64,000 bases of DNA from Draconibacterium sp. (GTDB lineage Bacteria > Bacteroidota > Bacteroidia > Bacteroidales > Prolixibacteraceae), in NCBI GenBank assembly GCA_041554075.1, contig JBFFMM010000001.1:816-64815 (forward strand), read 5' to 3'. The notes below the pieces were generated by a model. That model was not told the DNA's origin, did not search any database, and saw only the letters and a list, made by a program, of their open reading frames with translations. The position numbers and the translations under genes are program-made. Below are positions 1 through 64,000 of this stretch, piece after piece (position 1 is the stretch's first letter; each line of letters begins with the position of its first letter).

Positions 1-162
1 GGCGGTGGAAAAGAAGTAATAATAGAAAGTTCTAAATCTACTTTTGAGATGCTTCGACATACTCTTGGTACTCTAATTTCAGGAGAGAATACCGGAGGAA
101 ATGTTTGCCGTTTTTATTCAGTATTAGTGGAAAATGTTATTCAAATGATTTGGATTCTATAA
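1..162 (+). CDS. possible 3' end of an ORF running in from the window edge
   Basis: Frame 1 is open for 53 codons to TAA at 160-162; no recognisable motif. Confidence 0.2.
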   Translation, partial: GGGKEVIIESSKSTFEMLRHTLGTLISGENTGGNVCRFYSVLVENVIQMIWIL

Positions 163-304
163 TAGAAGCAATTGTTCATAACTATAGAGTTCAAATTTCA
201 TTTGCAGTTCTGAATAATGTATATTTATAATGCTAAAAATCAGAGATTCATATAGGTTTGATAAAATCTACTATGTGAAAAACAATATCAATAAACCCGT
301 AAAT

Positions 305-2410
305 ATGTATTTATCTCAGCTAAAACTGTGGAATTTTAGAAAATATGGAATAAAAGGAGATAGTATTGATTCCGCCGAGTCGGGCTTAACGGTGCAATTC
401 CAAAAAGGCGTAAATGTACTAGTTGGAGAAAATGATTCTGGAAAAACAGCAATTATTGATGCTATTCGTTACGTTCTAAAAACACAAAGTCAAGAATTTA
501 TACAACTCGATGAAAAAGATTTCTATAAAGAAGGAAATAATAGGGCTACTGAGTTGAAAATCGAATGTACCTTTTCTGGTTTTAATCCGGTTAATGCAGG
601 TCACTTTCTTGAATGGATTGGTTTTGACGAAAACAATAAATACCAACTAAAAGTTTGGCTTACTGCTAAACGAAAAGACAATAGTATTTATCCTAAGATT
701 AGTGCAGGAGCTGATTTAGATGGTGCCTATTTGGAAGGAGAAGCACGAAATCTTTTAAGGGTAATTTACTTGAAACCACTTCGTGATGCCTTGACAGAAA
801 TGACACATGGTAGAAAATCTAGATTAGCACAGATTTTAAAAAGCTTAAATGCATTTAAAGACAAAGCTGATGAAACAGGAACGAGAAAAAAACACGATTT
901 AGAAAATTACCACAATTCTTATGGTAAAAAGGTAAACAAATACTTCAACAAAGACGATAAAGGGAAACAAATAAGAAAAACGATTAATGAATTTCTAACG
1001 GAAGATTTTCTGTTTCGTGGAGAAGACCGTAAAGCAGGAATTAAAATAGAAGATTCAGAGCTTAGTGAGATTTTAAGAGAACTGGACTTGGTTCTTGAGG
1101 AAAATAAATCAGGCTTGGGTTCTCTCAATTTGTTATGTATGGCTGCTGAGCTATTGCATTTAAAAGAAAAGGTTACAGGATTAAAACTAACCCTAATTGA
1201 AGAGTTGGAGGCCCATTTACATCCTCAATATCAACTTACAGTAATTGATTTTATCGAGAAAAATCAGAATAAGTATGGTCAATTTATTTTAACGACTCAT
1301 AGCACTACACTTGCTTCCAAAATTGATTTAGAAAAACTTATTATTTGTCAAAGAAACAATGGTGTTTTTCCGATGGGGCATAAATTCACCCAGTTGGAAA
1401 GAGGAGATTATCAATTTTTACAGCGTTTTTTGGATGCAACAAAAGCGAATTTATTTTTTGCGCGGGGAGTAATTATTGTTGAGGGTGATGTCGAAAACTT
1501 ATTAATTCCAACAATTGCAAATATAATCGGAAGACCACTTCATACCTACGGAGTGTCAATTGTTAATGTAGGAAGTACTGCATTTAAAAGATATGCTCAG
1601 ATATTTTTACGGAAAAGTAAAAATGATAAAAAACATCAAGATGATTGGCTGGGAATGCCAGTCTCCATAATATCCGACTTAGACATTAAGAGTTTCGATT
1701 TTTACAAAGAAAAGGAGAAAAAAGACAGACCCAAATACATCTTTATATCAGATGAGATTGCTCAAAAACTAGCACAGTATCCTGACTACATTGATTTTAA
1801 TGGAATAGAAGGAAGTGTTTATTCTTCAATTAGTAATTTCTGGGAAAGAGAAAAACACAGAAAATTGGTATCTCGGTTTGCCACTGGAATAAAATCAGAA
1901 ATAGAATCCATTCTGGAAGATAGTACAGTTGAGATTACTGAAGAAATAATTACTGAAATTAGAACGATAACTAAAAAAGTTAAGACCAATGAATATCCAT
2001 TACAGAATGTAAATCTTTTTATATCTCCAAACTGGACTCTGGAATATGAAATAGCTTCTAGTGTTATTAAAGAAGACTTAATTAAAGCCGTTCAATGTGC
2101 TAAAATCCTAAAAAACGATGCAGCAACTTGTCTAGATGAGGAATTAATGGAAATGGCAACCAAACAAGCCAGTATTATTGATGAAAAATTGGCAGGCAAG
2201 GAGCCCAATGAGATTGCATATGCAATTTTCAAACCTATTAATGATGGAGAGGTATCTAAAGCAGTTACAGCGCAGTGCTTAGCGATGCTACTTGAAAAGG
2301 ACAAAGAGACCTATAAGACACTAATTGAAGAAGATAAATATCTCAGTTACATATGTAAAGCAATCTACTATGTAACTGAGCCTGCTGAAAAAGGAGGGAA
2401 TGATGACTAA
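305..2410 (+). CDS. gajA: OLD-family ATP-dependent endonuclease (ABC ATPase + TOPRIM), Gabija GajA-like
   Basis: MYLSQLKLWNFRK start (ATG 305, in frame with ORF 230), Walker A GENDSGKT, LIEELEAHLHP, TTHS, TOPRIM VEGDVE and SDLD; overlaps the downstream UvrD gene. Confidence 0.85.
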   Translation: MYLSQLKLWNFRKYGIKGDSIDSAESGLTVQFQKGVNVLVGENDSGKTAIIDAIRYVLKTQSQEFIQLDEKDFYKEGNNRATELKIECTFSGFNPVNAGHFLEWIGFDENNKYQLKVWLTAKRKDNSIYPKISAGADLDGAYLEGEARNLLRVIYLKPLRDALTEMTHGRKSRLAQILKSLNAFKDKADETGTRKKHDLENYHNSYGKKVNKYFNKDDKGKQIRKTINEFLTEDFLFRGEDRKAGIKIEDSELSEILRELDLVLEENKSGLGSLNLLCMAAELLHLKEKVTGLKLTLIEELEAHLHPQYQLTVIDFIEKNQNKYGQFILTTHSTTLASKIDLEKLIICQRNNGVFPMGHKFTQLERGDYQFLQRFLDATKANLFFARGVIIVEGDVENLLIPTIANIIGRPLHTYGVSIVNVGSTAFKRYAQIFLRKSKNDKKHQDDWLGMPVSIISDLDIKSFDFYKEKEKKDRPKYIFISDEIAQKLAQYPDYIDFNGIEGSVYSSISNFWEREKHRKLVSRFATGIKSEIESILEDSTVEITEEIITEIRTITKKVKTNEYPLQNVNLFISPNWTLEYEIASSVIKEDLIKAVQCAKILKNDAATCLDEELMEMATKQASIIDEKLAGKEPNEIAYAIFKPINDGEVSKAVTAQCLAMLLEKDKETYKTLIEEDKYLSYICKAIYYVTEPAEKGGNDD

Positions 2411-4475
2411 GAAGAGTTTTGCAACAGATAGTGAGATAATGCATGCTTCAGAGGTTTTACTTCCTGAGGGTTACTGCTTTTTAGATGATGCAGAAAAAGT
2501 AGAAATAATTAAGTGCAATGAATCTAAAGATATCGTTGCATGCCCTGGCAGTGGAAAAACAACAACTTTGCTCGCAAAGCTCCTGATTCTGGCAAACAGA
2601 ATGCCTCTCGATAAGAATAAAGGAATCTGTGTTCTCACTCATACTAATGTTGCAATTGATGAAATTAAAGATAAGTTAGGAAGCAAAGCAGATGTTCTTT
2701 TCCGATATCCAAATCACTTTGGAACAATACAATCTTTTGTAGATAAATATTTGGCAATACCCTATTACACAGATGTCAACAAAAAGAAAATTAACTCAAT
2801 TTCTAATGAATTGTATGGGCATGAAATTGTAACCATTTTCAAGTATGAAATATACAAGCTAAGACGGAACCAGTTATCCAAAAACATATGGTCAATCGTC
2901 AAAAGCTTTTCTTTCAATGGAGATGAGGATACTTTTTTATCAAACCTTAGAATTATAAGAGTAGGAGAAAATCAGGAAATAGCTAAAAATGATGGAAGAA
3001 TACTTTCATTTAATAAACCTAAAAGTAGGAATCAACGAAACTATACTGATTGGAAAGAAAGAGAAAAAGTTGAGCTGAAAGAATGGTTTATAAACCTGAT
3101 AAATATTGTTCATACTAAAAGAGGCACATTGTCATATGATGATGCATACACATATGCTGAGAATTATATTCAAACTTACCCAAAGACTATTAAAGCATTA
3201 TCTTCTAGATTTCATTATGTTTTTATTGATGAAATGCAAGACACTGCCTTACATCAAATAAAGTTATTAGATAAAACCTTTGATTTCAAAAAGACAATTA
3301 TCCAACGCTTTGGCGACCCTTTTCAATCAATTTATAACAAAGTAAGTATTGAGGAAATATGGAAACCCAGAGATTTTCTATCTATAAACACAAGTTGTAG
3401 ATTTGGTGAAACCATAACTTCTGTTTTAAAAACAGTATGCATTGGAAATAATTCCGATTTAAAGGCATCAGGAGATATTCAATCTCATCAGCCAATTATG
3501 ATTGTTTACGAAAATCCAGACGAAGTACTACCTAAATATTGTGAACTATTATTGAATAGAAATATAGATTATGATGGAGAGCAACTGTCTGTATTTGAAG
3601 TATCAAAAAGAGAACGCAGACCAATAAAAGCTGTTGGTTGGGTGGGCAAGGCGTTGGATGAAAAATACCCTGAAAGATTTAAGCTTAAATCTTATTTTGA
3701 GGATTATCATAAGGAAGTAAAGAAGAAAGATAAAGTAGATTACACATCATTGAAAAGTTTCTTAAGAAAGTTGGAAGGAGCAAAAGTTAAGGATTATAAA
3801 AATAAGATTATCGAAGCAATGCTGCATATTCTGCGAATCGAAGGGAAAACATATGCAAAAAATGGGCGCAATTATTTCTATACAAAGACAACTTTTCTTT
3901 CTGCTCTTGATGAAACTGAACGGCTTGAAAAATTCAATAAGTCATGTTCAAAATGGATTAGCAAACTGAACAAAACCAATTCGATTAATGAAAATACCGT
4001 TGATAAAGTCAGAAAACATTTCATTAAAAAGTTATTCCCGGTTTTTGGCATAAACTCAGCGAATCCTGAAGTAGTAAGTTTTTTAAATAATGAAATTAGT
4101 GACGAAGCTTTTAATGTAAAAACAATTGAATTAAGCAATATTTATAAGTATCCAGAAAATGGAGAAGTAAAAGTTGAAGTATCCAATATTCATCAAGTAA
4201 AAGGAGAAACACATACTGCTACACTTTATATGGAAACATGGTATCAGAGTAATTTTGAGAGTGAGTCAATTGCTCCTCAAATAATGGGAGAACCTTACGT
4301 ACAACCCAAGAACAAAAAAGACACGTACACAAAAGAAACTTTGAAAATGGCGTATGTTGGAATGAGCCGTCCAAGGTTTTTATTGTGTATGGCTATTCAT
4401 AAAGACCGATACGATGAAGCCTTTAATATTTACAAAGGAGGTTTGTGGGAAATAGTAAAAACATATAACAATTAA
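2400..4475 (+). CDS. gajB: UvrD/Rep SF1 helicase, Gabija GajB-like
   Basis: ACPGSGKTT, VLTHTN, FIDEMQD, FGDPFQSIY, IHQVKGETH, YVGMSR; overlaps the end of the OLD nuclease gene. Confidence 0.85.
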   Translation: MMTKKSFATDSEIMHASEVLLPEGYCFLDDAEKVEIIKCNESKDIVACPGSGKTTTLLAKLLILANRMPLDKNKGICVLTHTNVAIDEIKDKLGSKADVLFRYPNHFGTIQSFVDKYLAIPYYTDVNKKKINSISNELYGHEIVTIFKYEIYKLRRNQLSKNIWSIVKSFSFNGDEDTFLSNLRIIRVGENQEIAKNDGRILSFNKPKSRNQRNYTDWKEREKVELKEWFINLINIVHTKRGTLSYDDAYTYAENYIQTYPKTIKALSSRFHYVFIDEMQDTALHQIKLLDKTFDFKKTIIQRFGDPFQSIYNKVSIEEIWKPRDFLSINTSCRFGETITSVLKTVCIGNNSDLKASGDIQSHQPIMIVYENPDEVLPKYCELLLNRNIDYDGEQLSVFEVSKRERRPIKAVGWVGKALDEKYPERFKLKSYFEDYHKEVKKKDKVDYTSLKSFLRKLEGAKVKDYKNKIIEAMLHILRIEGKTYAKNGRNYFYTKTTFLSALDETERLEKFNKSCSKWISKLNKTNSINENTVDKVRKHFIKKLFPVFGINSANPEVVSFLNNEISDEAFNVKTIELSNIYKYPENGEVKVEVSNIHQVKGETHTATLYMETWYQSNFESESIAPQIMGEPYVQPKNKKDTYTKETLKMAYVGMSRPRFLLCMAIHKDRYDEAFNIYKGGLWEIVKTYNN

Positions 4476-4478
4476 GAT

Positions 4479-4868
4479 ATGCATCCAGAAGACAAAGAAA
4501 TTATAGAACTAAAAAAAGCCATTCCTAATGAAAAAGTTTTGCAAGTTCTTGAGAGATATAAAAAAGAATATGGCTTTGCTGATTATTATGGAGCGTTAGA
4601 TTCAATGGCTTATAAGCTAGGTATTAGTTGGGGAAACGAATTAATCGCTGATAATACAACGAATAAAGATGCTGGTTATATACCATTCGTAAATTATTCT
4701 GCTGAAAATGCTTTATACGAACCACCAGGAAAACGAGATTTAATCTCAGGTCCTTACAAGAAATTAGCAGATAGTAAGCGATTTGCGACTAAAGAAATCA
4801 TCTACAGGCTAATGAGAATTGAAAATATCGAAAAACTTGTATTCTCAGAACCCCACTTTCCCAAATAA
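4479..4868 (+). CDS. hypothetical protein (129 aa) in the Gabija operon
   Basis: ATG 3 nt after the gajB stop, same strand; no recognisable domain. Confidence 0.6.
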   Translation: MHPEDKEIIELKKAIPNEKVLQVLERYKKEYGFADYYGALDSMAYKLGISWGNELIADNTTNKDAGYIPFVNYSAENALYEPPGKRDLISGPYKKLADSKRFATKEIIYRLMRIENIEKLVFSEPHFPK

Positions 4869-4904
4869 GAAAAATTGCAAACCTTCATATTAACCAAACA
4901 GCAT

Positions 4905-5612
4905 ATGCCAATCAATTTTGAATCAATCAGACTCTATTGCAAAAAAAGAAAAAGGGCTAGGAACATCAAGAAAAACAGAGATAGTGTACCTCCATATCTC
5001 AAAAAGACATTTGTTGAAGAATTAAACTATAAACTTTGGATTACTAAATCAGCTCGTTTTGTCGCGGCAGACAGATGTAAAAGACTTCATCTACTGTCAA
5101 TGAAAACAATTGGTTATTTAACTGCATATATCATTCTTGTAAGTCTTATTCAAGTTTATCAATTTGAAATATTTACAAAAATTCCTGAAAACTATTTCGC
5201 ATTTACTATAACTGCGTTGTCAATCCTTATATTAATATTCAGCCAGTTTGAAAATGCATATAATTTTCAATATTTATCCATTCAGTATCATAACTGTGCT
5301 AGGGAAATTTCGTCCCTATATAATCAACACAGAATAATTAAAACATTTGAGAACCACACGGAAAAGGAGCGCGAGTTCGAGCAAATTTCTAAGGAATATG
5401 ATGTAGTATTATCTAGGTTTGAAAATCATGAAAAGCTCGATATGGAAAAAGCACAAATTGGCAAACCATATTTTCAGTTATCTAAATATCAGGCTTTTAT
5501 TATAAAACGGAAGTTCTACTTTAATTACTTTTTTAAATATCATTTTTTTATTTGGAGTCCATTGGTTGTTTTCATTTTATACCAGCTCTATTGCTTTTTA
5601 GGTAGTTCTTAA
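4905..5612 (+). CDS. SLATT-domain (SLATT_5-like) membrane effector
   Basis: KLWITKSARF..ADR, two hydrophobic helices, YHNCAREI, Y..VL..FENHEKLD, C-terminal TM; start uncertain (TTG 4875 or ATG 4905). Confidence 0.7.
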   Translation: MPINFESIRLYCKKRKRARNIKKNRDSVPPYLKKTFVEELNYKLWITKSARFVAADRCKRLHLLSMKTIGYLTAYIILVSLIQVYQFEIFTKIPENYFAFTITALSILILIFSQFENAYNFQYLSIQYHNCAREISSLYNQHRIIKTFENHTEKEREFEQISKEYDVVLSRFENHEKLDMEKAQIGKPYFQLSKYQAFIIKRKFYFNYFFKYHFFIWSPLVVFILYQLYCFLGSS

Positions 5613-5713
5613 AATCTTAAAAAGAACAGTCAGTCGCACTTCCAAGGATTCTAATTTTGTATTCTACAGTTGTTGATATAATTAATTGCTTTTGACAGAA
5701 CGGTTTGTAATCC

Positions 5714-5857
5714 TCAAAAATATTTTTCAACATCAAACTCGTCAACCTCTTCATCAGAAGTAGAAGCAATATTCAGCTCAAAACTCCCTAATTGCAAATC
5801 AATCAAACCTAAAATTCGCTTTTGGTAATTCTTGTAAGTTGCTGCCAGTTGCTCAAC
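5714..5857 (-). pseudogene. orphan 3' tail no. 1 of the TraD/DUF4122-like gene
   Basis: Minus strand reads VEQLAATYKNYQKRILGLIDLQLGSFELNIASTSDEEVDEFDVEKYF*, which aligns to the C-terminus of the gene ending at 63581; no start or 5' part. Confidence 0.75.
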
Positions 5858-5880
5858 ATTTATCTAGCCTCAATAGTGTG

Positions 5881-5896
5881 TAAACAAATTTGTTTA
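5881..5896. promoter_or_regulatory. perfect 16-bp palindrome, probable antitoxin autoregulatory operator
   Basis: TAAACAAATTTGTTTA ending 18 nt before the ATG (5915) of an XRE-HTH gene. Confidence 0.55.
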
Positions 5897-5914
5897 TATT
5901 GCGTAGAGTTAATT

Positions 5915-6433
5915 ATGAGCAGCTTAGATAAAAATATTGAACTGATAAAGGGAATTCATCCGGGAATTATCCTCGAGAGGGAGTTGAAAAAAAGAAAACT
6001 TCCTAAACGCCGCCTTGCAATTTTAATTGGTGAGTATCCTCAACTTTTAGGAGATATAACCAAAGGGAAGCGTCGCATTAATCCCTCTTTGTCAATAAGA
6101 CTGGGCAATACGCTTGGGGTAGATGAAAGTTTCTTTTTATTGTTGCAAGCCTATTCCGATATTGAGCAGGAAAAGAAAAAACGAGCACTTCAGAATAAAC
6201 CTGATTTATTGAAGCTTCGCCCGGCATTATTTTGGGATACAGATATTAATTCCATTAATTGGGAAAAGAATAAAGCAGCCATTATTAAGCGTATTTTTGA
6301 ACGGGGTAACGAGCAGGAGTTGGAGGAGATTATCGGCTTTTATGGGAAGAACGAAATTGAAAAAGTTTTAAGGAAACTAAAAGACAGTTCGCCAAATATT
6401 GCTAAAAAGATAAACAAAATCCTCTGTGAATAG
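5915..6433 (+). CDS. HigA-type XRE/HTH antitoxin fused to a DUF6922-like domain
   Basis: IHPGIILERELK..LAILIG..GKRRINPSLSIRL N-terminus; LFWDTD...IIKRIFERG...FYG C-terminus. Confidence 0.75.
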   Translation: MSSLDKNIELIKGIHPGIILERELKKRKLPKRRLAILIGEYPQLLGDITKGKRRINPSLSIRLGNTLGVDESFFLLLQAYSDIEQEKKKRALQNKPDLLKLRPALFWDTDINSINWEKNKAAIIKRIFERGNEQELEEIIGFYGKNEIEKVLRKLKDSSPNIAKKINKILCE

Positions 6434-6443
6434 TGTATAAACT

Positions 6444-6611
6444 TCAATACCCCACATACTCCCCAATATCAAATCCCATTAACTCATCACCACGCTTAAC
6501 ACCTGAAACTGGTTGCTCCAACCTCCCCAAATGCAAATCAATCAAAGCTGTAATCCGCTTGGCATTATTTTCGGAGGAAGATGCCAGTTGCTCCACCCAA
6601 TCGGTATTTTC
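6444..6611 (-). pseudogene. orphan 3' tail no. 2 of the TraD/DUF4122-like gene
   Basis: Reads ENTDWVEQLASSSENNAKRITALIDLHLGRLEQPVSGVKRGDELMGFDIGEYVGY*; 30 of 31 residues identical to the intact gene over NTDW..GRLE; direct DNA repeat of about 63600-63743. Confidence 0.9.
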
Positions 6612-6858
6612 AGAATGTAGTATTCCTGGTTCTAAAACGGACTCGGATTAGTAATATTCAACTTCATAATTTTATCAATCCTGAAAGGTTGATTTTAAAA
6701 GAAAGAGTAAGTTGACAAACTAATAATTCGGAGAATTTTTTGAACTCGATTATCTATCTATTTTCCACAAACTAAAGGCTTGTATAGACTAATAAAAATT
6801 ACTATCACAGCTTGAAGTATTAAAGAAATATTTTAGTGGTATTTGATATAATCTAGTA

Positions 6859-6878
6859 TTTGTAACATCTGTTACAAA
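6859..6878. promoter_or_regulatory. palindrome TTTGTAACA-TC-TGTTACAAA, candidate Crp/Fnr (HcpR-type) site
   Basis: Perfect 9-bp arms 60 nt upstream of the first narK; GTAAC-N4-GTTAC core. Confidence 0.55.
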
Positions 6879-6938
6879 ATACCGTTAAGATTAACAGTAT
6901 TTTCATACACTTATTCAACTACCATAAAACCATACTGA

Positions 6939-8435
6939 ATGGAACAAGTCGCCACTTTGAAATCCCACCGAATGCTCTTTTTTAATACCCTTGCTTTTAC
7001 CGTATGTTTTGCGGTTTGGATGCTAAATGGTGTATTGGTAACTTTTTTAGTTAACAACCAGGTTTTCGATTGGGGACCGGTAAAAATTGGCTGGTTAATG
7101 GGAATTCCAGTTTTAACCGGGGCAATCTTTCGTTTACCTGCCGGAATTCTTACCGATAAATTTGGGGGGAAATGGGTGTATGGAATTCTACTTCTTATCT
7201 GTTCAGTTCCACTGTTTTTGCTTTCAACAGCCAACACCTTTTTCTTTTTTGCTTTATATAGTTTTGGTTTTGGTTTAACCGGTGTAAGTTTTGCGATTGG
7301 CATTGCCTACACTTCGGTTTGGTACCCGAAACACAGGCAGGGAACCGCACTTGGTATTTTTGGTGCTGGTAATGCAGGTGCCGCCATTACAACACTTTTG
7401 GCTCCATCTATTTTAAATTGGTTAACGGATAACGGAGCGAATATTGAAGGCTGGAGAAAACTTCCATTAATTTATGGTGGCGCATTAATTATTATGGGAA
7501 TTATATTCTTGTTATTTACCGAAAACAAAAAACCAGCATCTACCAATAAGAATATGAAACAGATTTTAAGTCCGTTAAAAAATATACGGGTTTGGCGTTT
7601 TGGAATGTATTACTTTTTAGTGTTTGGTTGTTTTGTGGCTTTCTCGCAATGGCTGGTTCCTTATTTTGTAAATGTGTATTATTTGCCCCTGGTAACCGCC
7701 GGAATATTTGCCGCGTTGTTTAGTTTGCCTTCGGGTGTAATTCGAGCTATGGGTGGCTGGTTGTCAGACATTTACGGAGCACGAAAAATTATGTACTGGG
7801 TTTTGGGAGCTTCAGTAGCAATCAGTGCTTTGCTTTTTATTCCGAAAATGGAAATTATTTCGCCCGGACAAGGAATTATGGCGAAACAAGATGGTGTGGT
7901 AACCTTTGTTTCCGATAATATGGTTAAAGTAGGCGAAAAAGAATATCCGGTTAAAGTAAAAAGTGGGGAATCGGAAAATCTGGACGATAAACTTTTAGTA
8001 CTTCCCTCAAAAGTAGCCTGGCAGGAACCTGTTGTAAAAGTAGGCGATAAAGTGGTTCGGAAACAATTACTTGTAAAAGGAGTAACCAAAATATATTTTC
8101 AGGCGAACGTATGGATTTTTGCCGTTTTGGTAATATTAATTGGAAGTATTTGGGGCATTGGAAAAGCCGCAGTTTACAAACACATTCCCGATTATTTTCC
8201 CGAAGAAGTTGGAGTAGTTGGAGGAATGGTGGGAGTACTCGGTGGTCTCGGTGGTTTTTTCTGCCCAATTATTTTTGGATATCTTTTAAAAGGCACTGGT
8301 TTATGGACTTCGTGTTGGTTGTTTATGTTGTTCTTATCGGCGCTTTGTTTGATTTGGATGCACCGTACAATAACTAAAATGAACAGACAAAGTTCTCCTG
8401 AAATTGCATTAAATATTGAAGCTAAACAAAACTAA
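6939..8435 (+). CDS. narK: NarK/NasA-family nitrate/nitrite MFS transporter with an inserted soluble domain
   Basis: FRLPAGILTDKFGG, QGTALGIFGAGNAG, GGMVGVLGGLGGF nitrate signatures; about 85-aa hydrophilic insert. Confidence 0.9.
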   Translation: MEQVATLKSHRMLFFNTLAFTVCFAVWMLNGVLVTFLVNNQVFDWGPVKIGWLMGIPVLTGAIFRLPAGILTDKFGGKWVYGILLLICSVPLFLLSTANTFFFFALYSFGFGLTGVSFAIGIAYTSVWYPKHRQGTALGIFGAGNAGAAITTLLAPSILNWLTDNGANIEGWRKLPLIYGGALIIMGIIFLLFTENKKPASTNKNMKQILSPLKNIRVWRFGMYYFLVFGCFVAFSQWLVPYFVNVYYLPLVTAGIFAALFSLPSGVIRAMGGWLSDIYGARKIMYWVLGASVAISALLFIPKMEIISPGQGIMAKQDGVVTFVSDNMVKVGEKEYPVKVKSGESENLDDKLLVLPSKVAWQEPVVKVGDKVVRKQLLVKGVTKIYFQANVWIFAVLVILIGSIWGIGKAAVYKHIPDYFPEEVGVVGGMVGVLGGLGGFFCPIIFGYLLKGTGLWTSCWLFMLFLSALCLIWMHRTITKMNRQSSPEIALNIEAKQN

Positions 8436-17503: not shown

Positions 17504-18225
17504 TGTATAATAATTTCATTTTTATAGGATTGCCCTACGCGGCATTGTTGATATTTTTAGTGGGTTCAATTTTTCGCTATCGAAGTCAACCCTTTTCGGT
17601 GTCGTCGCTTTCGTCACAAATTCTCGAAAGCCGCATTTTGTATTGGGGAAGTCACGCTTTTCATATCGGAATTGTCGCCCTGTTTTTCGGGCATTTAATC
17701 GGGTTCCTGTTTCCAAAAGCAGTCATTTCGTTTACGGGGCAACCCACTCGTTTGTTAATAATTGAAATATCGGCATTTGCTTTTGGTCTGCTTTCATTAT
17801 TTGGAATAGCCACATTAATTTACCGCAGAATTGCAGTAGCCAAATTAAAAACGGTTACCTCAAAAATGGATATGGTGGTTTATGCATTAATTCTTATTCA
17901 GGTTCTTTCGGGTTTGTGGATTGCCTATTTCGACCGCTGGGGTTCGGCTTGGTTTGCTATTTCCTTGGCGCCTTACTTAAAATCGGTATTCTTATTCACC
18001 CCAAATTACGAAGCTGTGGCTGCTATGCCGCTGAGTATTAAACTGCATGTTGCAAGTGCATTTGTGTTTATTGCAATGGTTCCGTTCACCCGTTTAATGC
18101 ACTTTCTGGTATTTCCGTTTGTGTATATCACCCGTGCCTACCAATATGTAATTTGGAACTGGGACAGAAAGAAAAGAAGGAGTTCAACTAAATTTAATGA
18201 GGGGGTTAAGGCGAAGAACAATTGA
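17503..18225 (+). CDS. narI: nitrate reductase gamma subunit (cytochrome b)
   Basis: SSLSSQ.LE, FHIGI..LFFGH, KLH, PFTRLMH; five TM helices. Confidence 0.95.
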   Translation: MYNNFIFIGLPYAALLIFLVGSIFRYRSQPFSVSSLSSQILESRILYWGSHAFHIGIVALFFGHLIGFLFPKAVISFTGQPTRLLIIEISAFAFGLLSLFGIATLIYRRIAVAKLKTVTSKMDMVVYALILIQVLSGLWIAYFDRWGSAWFAISLAPYLKSVFLFTPNYEAVAAMPLSIKLHVASAFVFIAMVPFTRLMHFLVFPFVYITRAYQYVIWNWDRKKRRSSTKFNEGVKAKNN

Positions 18226-18231
18226 GATTAC

Positions 18232-18318
18232 TTATTTCATTTTGAAATACACAAAAGAAATCTCATCCTTTTCTTAGTTCACCCAATGTTCAAATCCAAA
18301 GATGGTAGCTTTGGTAAT
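18232..18318 (-). pseudogene. short orphan 3' tail of the DUF1858 gene
   Basis: Reads KATIFGFEHWVN*EKDEISFVYFKMK* versus KATSLDFKHWVSQKNDEEFWVYFKQK* of 55090..55614; one internal stop. Confidence 0.75.
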
Positions 18319-26418: not shown

Positions 26419-26757
26419 TTACAACAATTTTGTCTGCGTGGTTGGTTTAGGTGCTTTCACCACCAATATGCGCGCAACATTTATTGAGTTGTTGTATAAA
26501 CAATGAACGATGCCTTTTGGGCTTTCTACCAAACTATCGGACTGCACTTCCACTTTTTCTTTTCCCACAAGAATTTCGGGAGTTCCTTCCAAAACATAGA
26601 AAAAAACATCAACCGGAGTGATGTGTGGTTTTAGCGCTTCGCCTGGTTGCAAAGTAATGTGCATGGCTTGTGCCGAATCTTTGTCATATAATTTGCGAAC
26701 ATCCACTTTGTGTGCAGTTTCTTGAATTTTAGTTTCGCCTACTTTACTTATTTCCAT
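26419..26757 (-). CDS. cupin-domain protein
   Basis: LQPGE.LKPHITP.DVFFYVLEG...P.GIVH. Confidence 0.88.
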   Translation of the reverse strand: MEISKVGETKIQETAHKVDVRKLYDKDSAQAMHITLQPGEALKPHITPVDVFFYVLEGTPEILVGKEKVEVQSDSLVESPKGIVHCLYNNSINVARILVVKAPKPTTQTKLL

Positions 26758-28715: not shown

Positions 28716-29060
28716 TTATTTCTTCTTAAAATATACCAAATATTTCTCGTCTTTTTGTTGGTCCACCCAATGTTCAAAACCAAGACTGGTGGCTTTGTCG
28801 ATTAGTGGATCTGGAATAAAGAGGGCACTTATTTTATAAATAGACCCTTCGGGCAAACTTCGCAGGTCGGCAATTACTTGGTTTACGGGGTGCTCGCCAA
28901 CTGCCAGCATTTCACGAATATCGAGTTCTTTACTGGTTTTCGATTCATCAAACCAAATGGGTTTTTGGTTATTGTAAGTGGTATCGCTATCCAACGAAAG
29001 AGAGTATTGCCCGACTTCTTTTCGCAATACTTTAATCAGTTTTTTCTCATTAACATTTCC
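28716..29060 (-). pseudogene. 5'-truncated copy of the DUF1858 gene
   Basis: RKEVGQ...KELDIREMLA.GEHPVNQVIADLRSLP...PLIDKATSL.F.HWV, near-identical to the C-terminal part of 55090..55614; N-terminal DUF1858 part missing. Confidence 0.9.
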
Positions 29061-29062
29061 TG

Positions 29063-29357
29063 TTTCGACTGCTGGGGTTCGGCTTGGTTTGCCATTTCGT
29101 TGGTGCCTTACCTAAAATCGATATTTTTATTTTCAACAAATTAAGAAACCGTTGCTTCTATGCCACTGAGTATAAAACTCCATGTTGCATCAGCATTTGT
29201 TTTTGTAGTACTGTCACCTTTTTCGCGTTTAATGCACTTTCTGGTATTTCCATTTGTGTATATCACCCATGCTTACCAATATGTAATTTTGAATTGGTAT
29301 AGGAAAAAATGGCGGACTTCTACTAAGTTTAATCAAGGAGTGAAAGCGAAGAATAAC
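29063..29357 (+). pseudogene. narI: 5'-truncated copy of the narI 3' region
   Basis: Direct repeat of about 17928-18222 (WGSAWFAISL.PYLKS...MPLSIKLHVASAFVF...KAKNN) with a TAC>TAA nonsense change at 29142-29144. Confidence 0.92.
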
Positions 29358-55089: not shown

Positions 55090-55614
55090 TTATTTCTGCT
55101 TAAAATACACCCAAAACTCCTCATCGTTTTTTTGTGACACCCAATGTTTAAAATCAAGGCTGGTGGCTTTATCGATTAATGGTGCCGGAATAAAAGGAGC
55201 GATAATTTTATAAATCGAATTCGCAGGCAAACTTCGCAGGTCGGCAATTACCTGGTTTACGGGATGCTCGCCAGCTGCCAGCATTTCACGAATATCCAAT
55301 TCTTTGTTCACCTTTGTTTCATCAAACCACTCCGGCTTTTGAGAATTGTATGTTGTATCTCCTTCAAGCGAAAGAATGTCCTGCCCCACTTCTTTTCGCA
55401 GTACGTTAATTAAATCTTCCACTTTAACACCTCCCACAGCGGCGGCTTGTTGTAAAGTTGCAATTTTGGCAACCGTATTGCGCAGCACAGGGTTTTTTAG
55501 TTTTTTAAAGGCCGGTACATAATCAATTAACACATCTTCGAGTTTCGGGTACGCTTCAATTAACTGAAGCACTTTTGTTTTTGGGGTGATTATTAATAGT
55601 TCTTTTGCTTTCAT
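55090..55614 (-). CDS. DUF1858-domain protein
   Basis: ITP.TKV..L...YP.L...L....P.FKKL.NP.LR.TV....TL.QAA; C-terminal LD.R.ML..GEHP..V domain. Confidence 0.85.
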   Translation of the reverse strand: MKAKELLIITPKTKVLQLIEAYPKLEDVLIDYVPAFKKLKNPVLRNTVAKIATLQQAAAVGGVKVEDLINVLRKEVGQDILSLEGDTTYNSQKPEWFDETKVNKELDIREMLAAGEHPVNQVIADLRSLPANSIYKIIAPFIPAPLIDKATSLDFKHWVSQKNDEEFWVYFKQK

Positions 55615-60151: not shown

Positions 60152-60490
60152 CTAAACCATAATGGTTTTTGTTACTGGTTTTGGTGCTTTTACCACAAGA
60201 ATGCGTGCCACCTTATCCGATTTATTTGCGATACAATGCACAATATCTTTTGGACTTTCAACCAAACTATCTTTTTCAACGGTACGCGTTTCGTCGCCAA
60301 CCTGAATTTGGGGTGTTCCTTCCAGTACATAGAAAAATACATCAACCGGGGTAATGTGCGGAATCAATCCCTCACCTGGCTGAAGTGTAATGTGCATGGC
60401 TTGTGCATTGTCGTGGTCGTATAAACGGCGAACTTCAACTTTGTGCGGGTTTTTCTGCAATGGTGCATCTTTTACCAATGTAATAATCAT
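60152..60490 (-). CDS. cupin-domain protein (close paralogue of 26419..26757)
   Basis: AQAMHITLQPGE.L.PHITPVDVFFYVLEGTP shared by both copies. Confidence 0.88.
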   Translation of the reverse strand: MIITLVKDAPLQKNPHKVEVRRLYDHDNAQAMHITLQPGEGLIPHITPVDVFFYVLEGTPQIQVGDETRTVEKDSLVESPKDIVHCIANKSDKVARILVVKAPKPVTKTIMV

Positions 60491-63580: not shown

Positions 63581-64000
63581 TCAACCAATAAACTTATGAA
63601 TATCAAACCCCGTCAATCCAATATTTAGCTTAACATCCGAATTTGGTCGCTCCAATCTTCCCAAATGCAAATCAATTAAAGCTGTAATCCGCTTGGCATT
63701 GTTTTCGGAGGTAGATGCCAGTTGCTCTACCCAATCGGTATTTCCGTTTTCGTAAAGAAGTTTTCCGGTTTCGGGAGTGGATTGGGCTTGGTGGTTCCCG
63801 ACTTCATTGACCACAGCCATCATTTCTTCAAACGTTATATTTTGGGAATAATCATTGTGCAAACCGAGCATTTCTAATTCCTCCTGTTCTTCCTGATTAT
63901 TGGCTTCTTCCGTTTCATAATCGAGCGGTATTTCAATGTCCATTTTACCAGATGTATCAGAACTTGGCTCTGAGATTCCCTTTTGATTTTTGCTTTCACT
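63581..64000 (-). CDS. TraD/DUF4122-like protein of a Bacteroidota conjugative or mobilisable element (5' end outside the window)
   Basis: Frame stays open from 63943 to the window edge; acidic DIEIPLDYE...EQEELE, ITFEEM, TDWVEQL, LID.H, GFDI..F pattern resembles this family (from memory). Confidence 0.55.
   Translation of the reverse strand, partial: SESKNQKGISEPSSDTSGKMDIEIPLDYETEEANNQEEQEELEMLGLHNDYSQNITFEEMMAVVNEVGNHQAQSTPETGKLLYENGNTDWVEQLASTSENNAKRITALIDLHLGRLERPNSDVKLNIGLTGFDIHKFIG

Follow-up and report, generated by a model that had tools for sequence, protein, structure and literature searches.

Truncated Conjugation-Gene Tails between Cargo Blocks in an Integrative and Conjugative Element of Draconibacterium: Probable Accretion by Displacement

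Introduction

C-terminal displacement arrays, in which 5′-truncated 3′ fragments stand after an intact gene and share its orientation, are known from the rhs, cdiA, and Vibrio cholerae type VI secretion system (T6SS) loci (PMC2935791; PMC5361080). The fragments were acquired horizontally from other lineages, each lies ahead of genes that formerly stood downstream of its full-length gene, no recombinase takes part, and such arrays are much rarer than clean replacements. For the Vibrio T6SS loci, clean homologous replacement was argued to be far commoner than displacement, and homology-facilitated illegitimate recombination (HFIR) was proposed for the latter (PMC5361080). Here, we describe a comparable layout in a CTnDOT-type integrative and conjugative element (ICE) of Draconibacterium, family Prolixibacteraceae. 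The stretch analysed, referred to below as the window, comprises 64,000 nt (positions 816–64815 of contig JBFFMM010000001.1, designated G000:C1 or C1, a 71-kb contig of a metagenome-assembled genome, MAG, that is 70% complete and consists of 325 contigs). In this window two truncated 3′ ends of a small conjugation-module gene, named traD-like after its position, stand between successive blocks of cargo.

Variable-DNA hotspots and hybrid formation in the SXT/R391 ICEs were reportedly described in 2009 by Wozniak and by Garriss. In streptococci, cis-mobilizable elements (CIMEs) accrete at the 3′ end of fda, as in the case of ICESt1/ICESt3. The accretion of ICEs and CIMEs and the tandem islands at tRNA genes have been reviewed (PMC5704250); in these systems direct repeats of a gene 3′ end bound successive units, some of which have no integrase. 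The SXT/R391 ICEs combine a conserved backbone with fixed intergenic sites that hold unrelated cargo, including defence genes, and form inter-ICE mosaics (PMC4542580). In the type II ICEs of Elizabethkingia (Flavobacteriia), the traABDEFG... module carries an additional gene between traD and traE (bioRxiv 10.1101/402107), the interval that is also occupied by cargo in the element described here.

Two 5′-Truncated Copies of the traD-like Gene

The intact traD-like gene encodes 192 aa on the minus strand; its 3′ 139 codons, defined by the open reading frame (ORF) and its translation, occupy 63581–64000 of the window, the gene ending at 63581, and its start is located beyond the window at C1:64974. 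The segment that is repeated elsewhere (63599–63743, minus strand) consists of an 89-nt patch encoding TDWVEQLAS...LIDLHLGRL, a variable linker of ~20 codons, and an end of the GFDIGEYV type. Two tails resembling this segment were detected by blastn, both in the orientation of the intact gene and each terminating in a stop codon: tail 2 (6465–6609 versus 63599–63743, 85% identity over 145 nt, E 4e-43) and tail 1 (5776–5857 versus 63649–63730, 72% identity over 82 nt, E 3e-7). A profile of 15 C-termini of the family recovered both of them (E 8e-28 for tail 2 and 1.8e-13 for tail 1) and gave no further match anywhere on the 71-kb contig. Read along the minus strand, the order is the intact gene, 57 kb of cargo, tail 2, a helix-turn-helix (HTH) antitoxin gene, tail 1, and a block with SLATT and Gabija genes.

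An earlier sequence-only reading of the window had recognised the two stop-terminated tails, this order, and a protein core of tail 2 identical to that of the intact gene at 30 of 31 positions, all of which proved correct. The boundaries it gave had to be revised. Tail 2, which it had placed at 6444–6611, is a 5′-truncated pseudogene copy that extends further at its 5′ end, the native part running from 6454 to ~6670 on the minus strand (residues ~117–190). Tail 1 is a 5′-truncated copy with an open frame of 48 codons (5714–5857, minus strand, residues 144–192), so that the 5′ breakpoints are ~27 codons apart (residue 144 versus 117) instead of the ~4 codons claimed.

Tail 2 is not uniformly similar to the intact gene. 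Its 5′ third, reaching ~6670 (residue ~117), is decayed, with one in-frame stop and a 6-nt deletion, and none of 2000 shuffles attained the score of this extension. Identity to the intact gene is 63% in the 5′ third, 93% in the 89-nt patch, and 63% in the 3′ 70 nt, and the value for the patch exceeds that of either sequence with any other member of the family (at most 86.5%). Tail 2 and the intact gene have no exact match longer than 23 nt, as read off the alignment, and the corresponding value for tail 1, read by eye, is ~14 nt. The last two codons of tail 2 (GY, followed by the stop) are not native and result from a fusion at 6453/6454 to the remnant of an AbiEii toxin gene. In run X3, which belongs to an unrelated study, a contig departs from the window exactly at 6454 and there reads the family-typical GEYVR and stop. 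The junction between the toxin remnant and the end of tail 2 is an illegitimate deletion joint. A seam of 21 nt of filler (5858–5878) lies between tail 1 and the antitoxin block, and a stretch of ~190 nt (6671–6858) lies between tail 2 and the narK promoter region. No homologue of the latter stretch was found in any relative locus compared or in the MAG, and homology to other nar clusters starts at 6859.

The three copies of the gene have different closest relatives. The intact gene is closest to the same proteins, P0037/P0038, in its 5′ part and its 3′ part alike, and for the 3′ part of tail 2 the nearest are P0059/P0063. At the protein level, tail 1 is nearest to a clade of 184–185 aa proteins with the motif YQKRI (P0139/P0140); its nucleotide identity is at most 70% to the 39 full-length family members compared and 74% to tail 2. 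By these affinities, the tails descend from other gene lineages and not from a local duplication of the resident gene. A word-index search yielded no longer proteins matching tail 1, and exact-pattern scans of metagenome and genome contigs gave no match to the 3′ sequence specific to tail 2.

The Cargo Hotspot between the traD-like Gene and traE

The interval between the traD-like gene and traE is a true cargo hotspot with sharp conserved borders. Here it measures 63.5 kb, which is nearly the whole window, and in 15 related elements of the genus it ranges from 2.3 to more than 19 kb and has an unrelated gene content. The hotspot extends from the traD-like stop codon, directly after which the sequences of the relatives diverge, to a conserved point ~250 bp upstream of traE. 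At that point the conserved backbone upstream of traE stops within 6 bp in 12 elements (C1:818–823, window 3–8; the border feature covers 1–8 of the window). A border-repeat pair formed by the traE-side border and the patch of the traD-like gene was considered and dismissed, there being no sequence similarity between them. In one sub-lineage (L028, L029, L030, L036, and L113) the first ~90 nt after the traD-like stop are conserved and non-coding; they hold two copies of AATCTAATATTTGCCAA and an inverted repeat, TGCCA...TGGCA, and may act as operator or promoter for the cargo gene that comes first.

Tails in Related Genomes and Metagenomes

Relatives were collected by genome searches and with a ParA query, the C-terminal alignment being too variable for pattern scanning. 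In 335 Prolixibacteraceae genomes, ~42 full-length traD-like genes were found together with five orphan tails in 3 genomes, namely, two in the window, two in G101:C21, and one in G093:C4. The up to 10–20 kb examined downstream of the gene in ~40 other full-length elements contained no tails. G101:C21 independently repeats the architecture. Tails are uncommon, occurring in 3 of the 335 genomes of the family and in some metagenome fragments.

In G101:C21 the order is tail A, 13 kb, tail B, 4 kb, and traE. Tail B and 3.65 kb of adjoining sequence are collinear, at 83% identity, with the end of the full gene and the whole hotspot of another element (L035). It follows that a tail can travel together with the cargo that natively lies downstream of it. 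The surrounding region (G101:C21:69751–92213; L066–L068) is a decayed ICE in which RteC and two small HTH genes are followed directly by tail A; the mob genes, traA, traB, and the 5′ part of traD are missing from it. A gene resembling an IS1595-type transposase, with no Pfam typing, is located at 76367–77308, and tail B and traE follow. The tail in G093:C4 (346996–347112) is isolated and decayed, covers profile positions 9–47, and contains one TAG. A tblastn search found no homologue of any contig-C1 ORF within 20 kb of it, and no DUF4134 gene is present on that contig.

A profile search of 1.84 billion representatives returned 41 matches, with ~ten clusters of short decayed C-terminal fragments; the four metagenome clusters that were checked are contig-internal and have foreign DNA upstream. 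Two metagenome contigs from different sources (L141:1–2941 and L145:1–665) have a common joint, where a 135-aa gene with the end ...FYYW.QTV..L..G.E and a stop is followed by a decayed tail, and in L141 a gene for an 842-aa NACHT/STAND NTPase comes next after the tail. In profile coordinates, as taken from the printed translations, the 5′ ends of the tails scatter from residue ~117 to 156: they lie at ~117 and 144 here, at ~120, 122, 146, and 155 in the metagenome fragments, and at ~136 or earlier and ~156 in G101. Another relative (L034:4550–6131) has an IS3-family insertion sequence (OrfA and rve OrfB) beside a traD-like gene that ends in ...SSSDV and a stop; this gene is without its last ~15 codons, and the lost end was not found across the insertion sequence.

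Soundness of the Assembly

Contigs from public sequencing runs span the region from the SLATT gene through tail 1 to the HTH gene (5209–5964), and the joint between tail 2 and narK is spanned in three studies (6493–6959, 6556–7151, and 6552–6746); among the public-run contigs listed none spans 6451–6493. Since the longest match between tail 2 and the intact gene is that of 23 nt and no 31-mers are shared, a de Bruijn misjoin of the two is unlikely. An assembly artefact, in which the contig would be a chimera of strain variants and the tails misjoined pieces, could draw on the incompleteness and fragmentation of the MAG, on the interval 6451–6493 left unspanned, and on the presence in run X1 of at least a third variant of the patch segment of the traD-like gene. 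Such a chimera is nevertheless very improbable, as the tails differ from the intact gene by 15–28%, independent contigs run from the SLATT gene through tail 1 to the HTH gene and from tail 2 to narK, and comparable tails exist in other genomes and metagenomes. A possible hybrid contig in run X1, with a loose end at 6609 and ~5x depth, is most simply explained as an intact-gene contig cross-mapped onto tail 2.

Origin of the Stacked Cargo

On balance, the cargo was probably accreted by one-sided, homology-anchored recombination between related ICEs, or by the formation of a cointegrate followed by deletion; we infer both the order of the events and the type of recombination. The two tails would be the displaced 3′ ends of traD-like genes from two other ICE lineages. 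During recombination with a related ICE, backbone homology, including the 89-nt patch, would have anchored one side, and the other side would have been joined illegitimately, or a cointegrate would have been trimmed by deletion. In consequence, the incoming gene end and its cargo would have been an addition and not a replacement, and would have pushed the former end downstream together with the cargo belonging to it. Repeated events could thus have stacked the intact gene with 57 kb, tail 2 with the toxin–antitoxin remnant, and tail 1 with the SLATT/Gabija block, presumably with no dedicated recombinase taking part. As in the displacement arrays, an intact gene is followed by same-strand, 5′-truncated 3′ fragments, and these derive from other lineages and not from duplication of the resident gene. 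The sequence-only reading held that each tail keeps its own downstream cargo, and this applies to tail B of G101, collinear with L035; the toxin–antitoxin block next to tail 2, in contrast, occurs in the hotspots of L028 and L034 and is joined to the tail by deletion, and the context of tail 1 was not found. The patch and the variable ~20-residue linker after it recall a conserved core with a variable tip, but the N-terminal part of the protein is also variable, and nucleotide conservation of the patch is no higher than that of the preceding segment. The one-sided route is favoured because the intact gene is of a single lineage, tail 1 is too diverged for homologous crossover, the tail boundaries scatter, and deletion joints abound. 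Most elements with differing cargo are tail-free, as would be expected were ordinary double homologous exchange frequent and one-sided events infrequent; a like argument has been made for the Vibrio T6SS arrays (PMC5361080).

Several observations weigh against accretion by one-sided recombination. The backbone beside tail B of G101 is of another lineage, 90% identical to L024/L026 and 76% to L035, so a further exchange is needed to account for it. No native partner context for tail 1 turned up in the sequences searched. The MAG is 70% complete, and the remaining parts of the ICE (traG–Q, integrase, and ends) would be on other contigs. A simple one-sided event predicts neither a patch of 93% identity between flanks of 63% nor the heavier decay of tail 2 in its 5′ third; these features either require an extra gene conversion or fit a crossover inside the patch. 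The alternative put forward in the sequence-only reading is that the 3′ end of the gene is a landing pad where circles of tail and cargo from related elements integrate by single crossover, building an ordered array. In the form considered here, the circles would lack a recombinase, the crossover would be of RecA type and lie in the patch, units could pop out by recombination between tails, and the newest unit would be nearest the gene. This gene end does border a true hotspot, and the ordered layout fits, being exactly that of the rhs tip arrays; for these, a model of homologous recombination through circular intermediates has been proposed (PMC2935791). The ordered layout is also what would be predicted for displacement at the 3′ end of a gene, and illegitimate recombination anchored in homology, or a cointegrate with later deletion, accounts for it equally well. 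According to PMC3240628, incoming linear DNA in E. coli conjugation is more usually circularised and integrated by a single crossover, HFIR having occurred at only 3e-10 per recipient. A crossover inside the patch would be expected to leave the 63/93/63% identities seen in tail 2, and also its decayed 5′ third beside an intact-looking 3′ part; the joint of narK and tail 2 with other DNA after the tail in run X3 and the single gene–tail joint shared by L141 and L145, which differ more in the 3′ part of the tail, point the same way. However, the predicted reciprocal hybrid was not seen, the intact gene being of one lineage in both halves and the 3′ part of tail 2 of another, and the argument from a reciprocal mosaic is weakened by the common lineage of the 5′ and 3′ parts of the intact gene. 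Tail 1 is at most 74% identical to any other copy, far below the requirement of RecA, so that the sequences as they now stand could not recombine homologously, tails are rare in the family and missing from the up to 10–20 kb examined downstream in ~40 other elements, and no circle, excision product, or empty-site junction was observed; moreover, an initial illegitimate event would still be required to form each circle. Integration of circles by this route is possible but unlikely, and it is quite doubtful that the patch acts as a homology-based landing pad through which recombinase-free modules of orphan tail and cargo, up to 57 kb in length, move between co-resident Bacteroidota ICEs. If it did, it would constitute a recombinase-free counterpart of cassette capture, by which ICEs stack defence and metabolic islands, and would make recombinase-free cargo flow between ICEs open to testing.

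A site-specific origin was weighed as well, in which islands targeting the 3′ end of the traD-like gene, with a replacement for it in attP, would be inserted in tandem by a trans-acting tyrosine recombinase. Direct repeats of a gene 3′ end between integrase-less units are the signature of CIME/ICE accretion, and six tyrosine recombinases are encoded on other contigs of the MAG. Yet the 71-kb contig has no integrase: no match to PF00589, PF00239, or PF00665 (tyrosine recombinase, serine recombinase, and rve transposase) was found on it, by which the original statement that no integrase lies between the tails is extended to the whole of C1. The units share no identical core, since exact matches reach 23 nt at most and identity between the repeats is 72–85%, the tail boundaries are spread over ~40 codons, and the unit ends are deletion joints with unrelated filler. 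These features make site-specific insertion very unlikely. The description of the array as integron-like is not supported either, as no IntI-type PF00589 protein is encoded on C1 and an attC-like shared border site is absent, the only repeats being gene fragments and the seams consisting of unrelated filler (no dedicated attC model was run). Accretion by displacement, with recombination anchored on one side, remains the reading that we prefer.

Cargo Blocks and Their Seams

The cargo adjoining traE (230–5612, plus strand; Pfam) comprises a GajA-like gene with AAA_15/AAA_21 and OLD-TOPRIM domains, a GajB-like gene with a UvrD domain, an ORF of 129 aa for which no family match was found, and a SLATT_5 gene. 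Close homologues of the SLATT gene (P0004 and P0006) have only the gene body in common with it and differ in their flanks, with no tail and no ICE context around them. Elsewhere, these close homologues are preceded by a 202-aa gene, so the SLATT gene moves as a single-gene module.

Between the two tails, at 5915–6433 on the plus strand, lies an orphan antitoxin gene of the HigA-like HTH/DUF6922 type (Pfam and NCBIfam; blastn to L028 and L034). The antitoxin block begins at a palindromic operator (5879), and the same block adjoins traE in L028 and L034. Immediately after it, the first ~7 codons of an AbiEii-type toxin gene remain (6433–6453, plus strand; homology to L034:3773–3812). In L034 the toxin belongs to PF08843 (AbiEii) and the antitoxin/toxin pair is intact (L034:3226–4426); a complete AbiE-like type IV toxin–antitoxin pair is therefore not present in the window, where the antitoxin is accompanied by the ~7 toxin codons only. 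An antitoxin kept without its toxin may serve as an anti-addiction or anti-defence gene.

The 57-kb composite cargo (6939–63524) was annotated from ORFs read by eye, with Pfam support for narK, DUF1858, and DUF438 only. It contains narK-narK-narGHJI and genes for RND efflux, SusC/D with sialidase and Neu5Ac lyase, glycogen synthase, nitric oxide (NO) reductase, RIC, NsrR, and a DUF438 protein, and thus genes of nar, efflux, sialic-acid, glycogen, and NO-detoxification functions. Homologous efflux and nar blocks are located upstream of traE of a different ICE in G030:C29 (40898–70445; L094 and L095), so that metabolic genes are plausible ICE cargo. That ICE is more distant (TraE 62% identical); its efflux cluster lies directly upstream of narK-narGHJI, and the order of the efflux and nar genes is the reverse of that in the window.

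The internal repeats of the window all lie in direct orientation, at 72–85% identity. Besides the tails, they comprise a narI 3′ end, a pair of cupin genes, and two 3′ fragments of DUF1858. Internal seams of the cargo are found at 18232–18313 and 28716–29356. The fragments of the narI and DUF1858 3′ ends (17920–18313, 28716–29356, and 55090–55429) are directly oriented, 78–81% identical, and lie on the flanks of the efflux block and of the sialic-acid/glycogen block. Two 5′-truncated fragments are joined back to back at 29055, giving a tandem-type or circle-type junction. These seams are of the same kind as those at the traD-like tails. The two cupin-like genes of 112 aa (26443–26712 and 60176–60445) are 72% identical, lie in direct orientation in different cargo blocks, and both resemble a single gene of G030:C29. 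Together with the toxin deletion joint and the 21-nt filler, these seams give the region the look of successive joins between elements that are related but not the same.

The ICE Backbone

The conjugative element is a CTnDOT-type ICE. Genes for ParA (traA-like, 254 aa), a DUF3408 protein (traB-like, 124 aa), and the traD-like protein form one run, with the traD-like gene as the third. The run is divergent from the genes for MobC_2, a MobA/VirD2 relaxase, a YWFCY/TraG coupling protein, and RteC (Pfam), and the mobilisation module was identified on L001 through a PF03432 relaxase, a PF02534/PF14293 coupling protein, a PF19514 MobC-like protein, and PF09357 RteC. Just left of the window, on the strand of the traD-like gene, are DUF4134 (TraE, C1:264–572) and DUF4133 (TraF, C1:1–327), so that backbone genes lie in collinear order at both ends of the cargo. 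The order ParA-DUF3408-...-DUF4134-DUF4133, in one orientation, was also seen in 15 relatives. Contig C1 stops inside traF and after RteC. A second copy of DUF4134 (traE) in the MAG, at G000:C162:634–900, comes either from another ICE or from a strain variant.

The traD-like protein has no Pfam or NCBIfam match, and all of its 256 database homologues are annotated as hypothetical. A weak relative (244 aa, E ~1e-6) occupies the same position in Bacteroides loci. The label traD rests on gene position only, and the protein does not belong to a named TraD family by these searches.

Comparison with Known Systems

Both ICE hotspots and displacement arrays are already known. In the literature searched, no earlier case was found of a conjugation-module gene whose displaced tails mark out cargo blocks, up to 57 kb in size, stacked one upon another. 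Integrons share with the locus only an ordered array of acquired units beside a fixed point; here there is no IntI, attI, or attC, there are no promoterless cassettes, and the units have promoters of their own and measure up to 57 kb. Accretion at fda or at tRNA genes has in common with it that direct repeats of a gene 3′ end bound successive units, but there the repeats are att sites with an identical core acted upon by a tyrosine integrase, whereas in the window neither was found and the boundaries vary. The Elizabethkingia type II ICEs share the insertion point between traD and traE, but the inserted gene is a single RadC gene, and no tails or accretion of several blocks have been reported (bioRxiv 10.1101/402107).

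With the SXT/R391 ICEs the element has in common a conserved backbone, a fixed intergenic site with unrelated cargo that includes defence genes, and mosaicism between ICEs, although it belongs to another ICE family with another type of type IV secretion system, that of the CTnDOT-like elements of Bacteroidota. To our knowledge, the SXT hotspots have not been described as leaving repeated gene tails. The analysis locates a sharply bordered cargo hotspot in a widespread marine Bacteroidota ICE family. The readable seams suggest that its 63 kb of cargo was gained block by block from three lineages and not swapped, so that genes for denitrification, sialic-acid utilisation, an efflux pump, and Gabija/SLATT defence came to be stacked.

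The nearest parallel is provided by the rhs, cdiA, and V. cholerae T6SS displacement arrays, which agree with the locus in the same-orientation 5′-truncated fragments after an intact gene, in their origin from other lineages, in the lack of a recombinase, and in their rarity. The differences are that the gene is not a polymorphic toxin gene but encodes a small hypothetical protein of the ICE conjugation module, that whole cargo blocks of 0.6 to 57 kb, and not an immunity gene, are dragged along, and that there are only two tails, with no evident selective reason such as the retention of immunity. The locus is a case of ICE mosaic evolution and not a new system. With it, the displacement-array pattern known from polymorphic toxin loci would take in a gene of the conjugation module and cargo of very large size.

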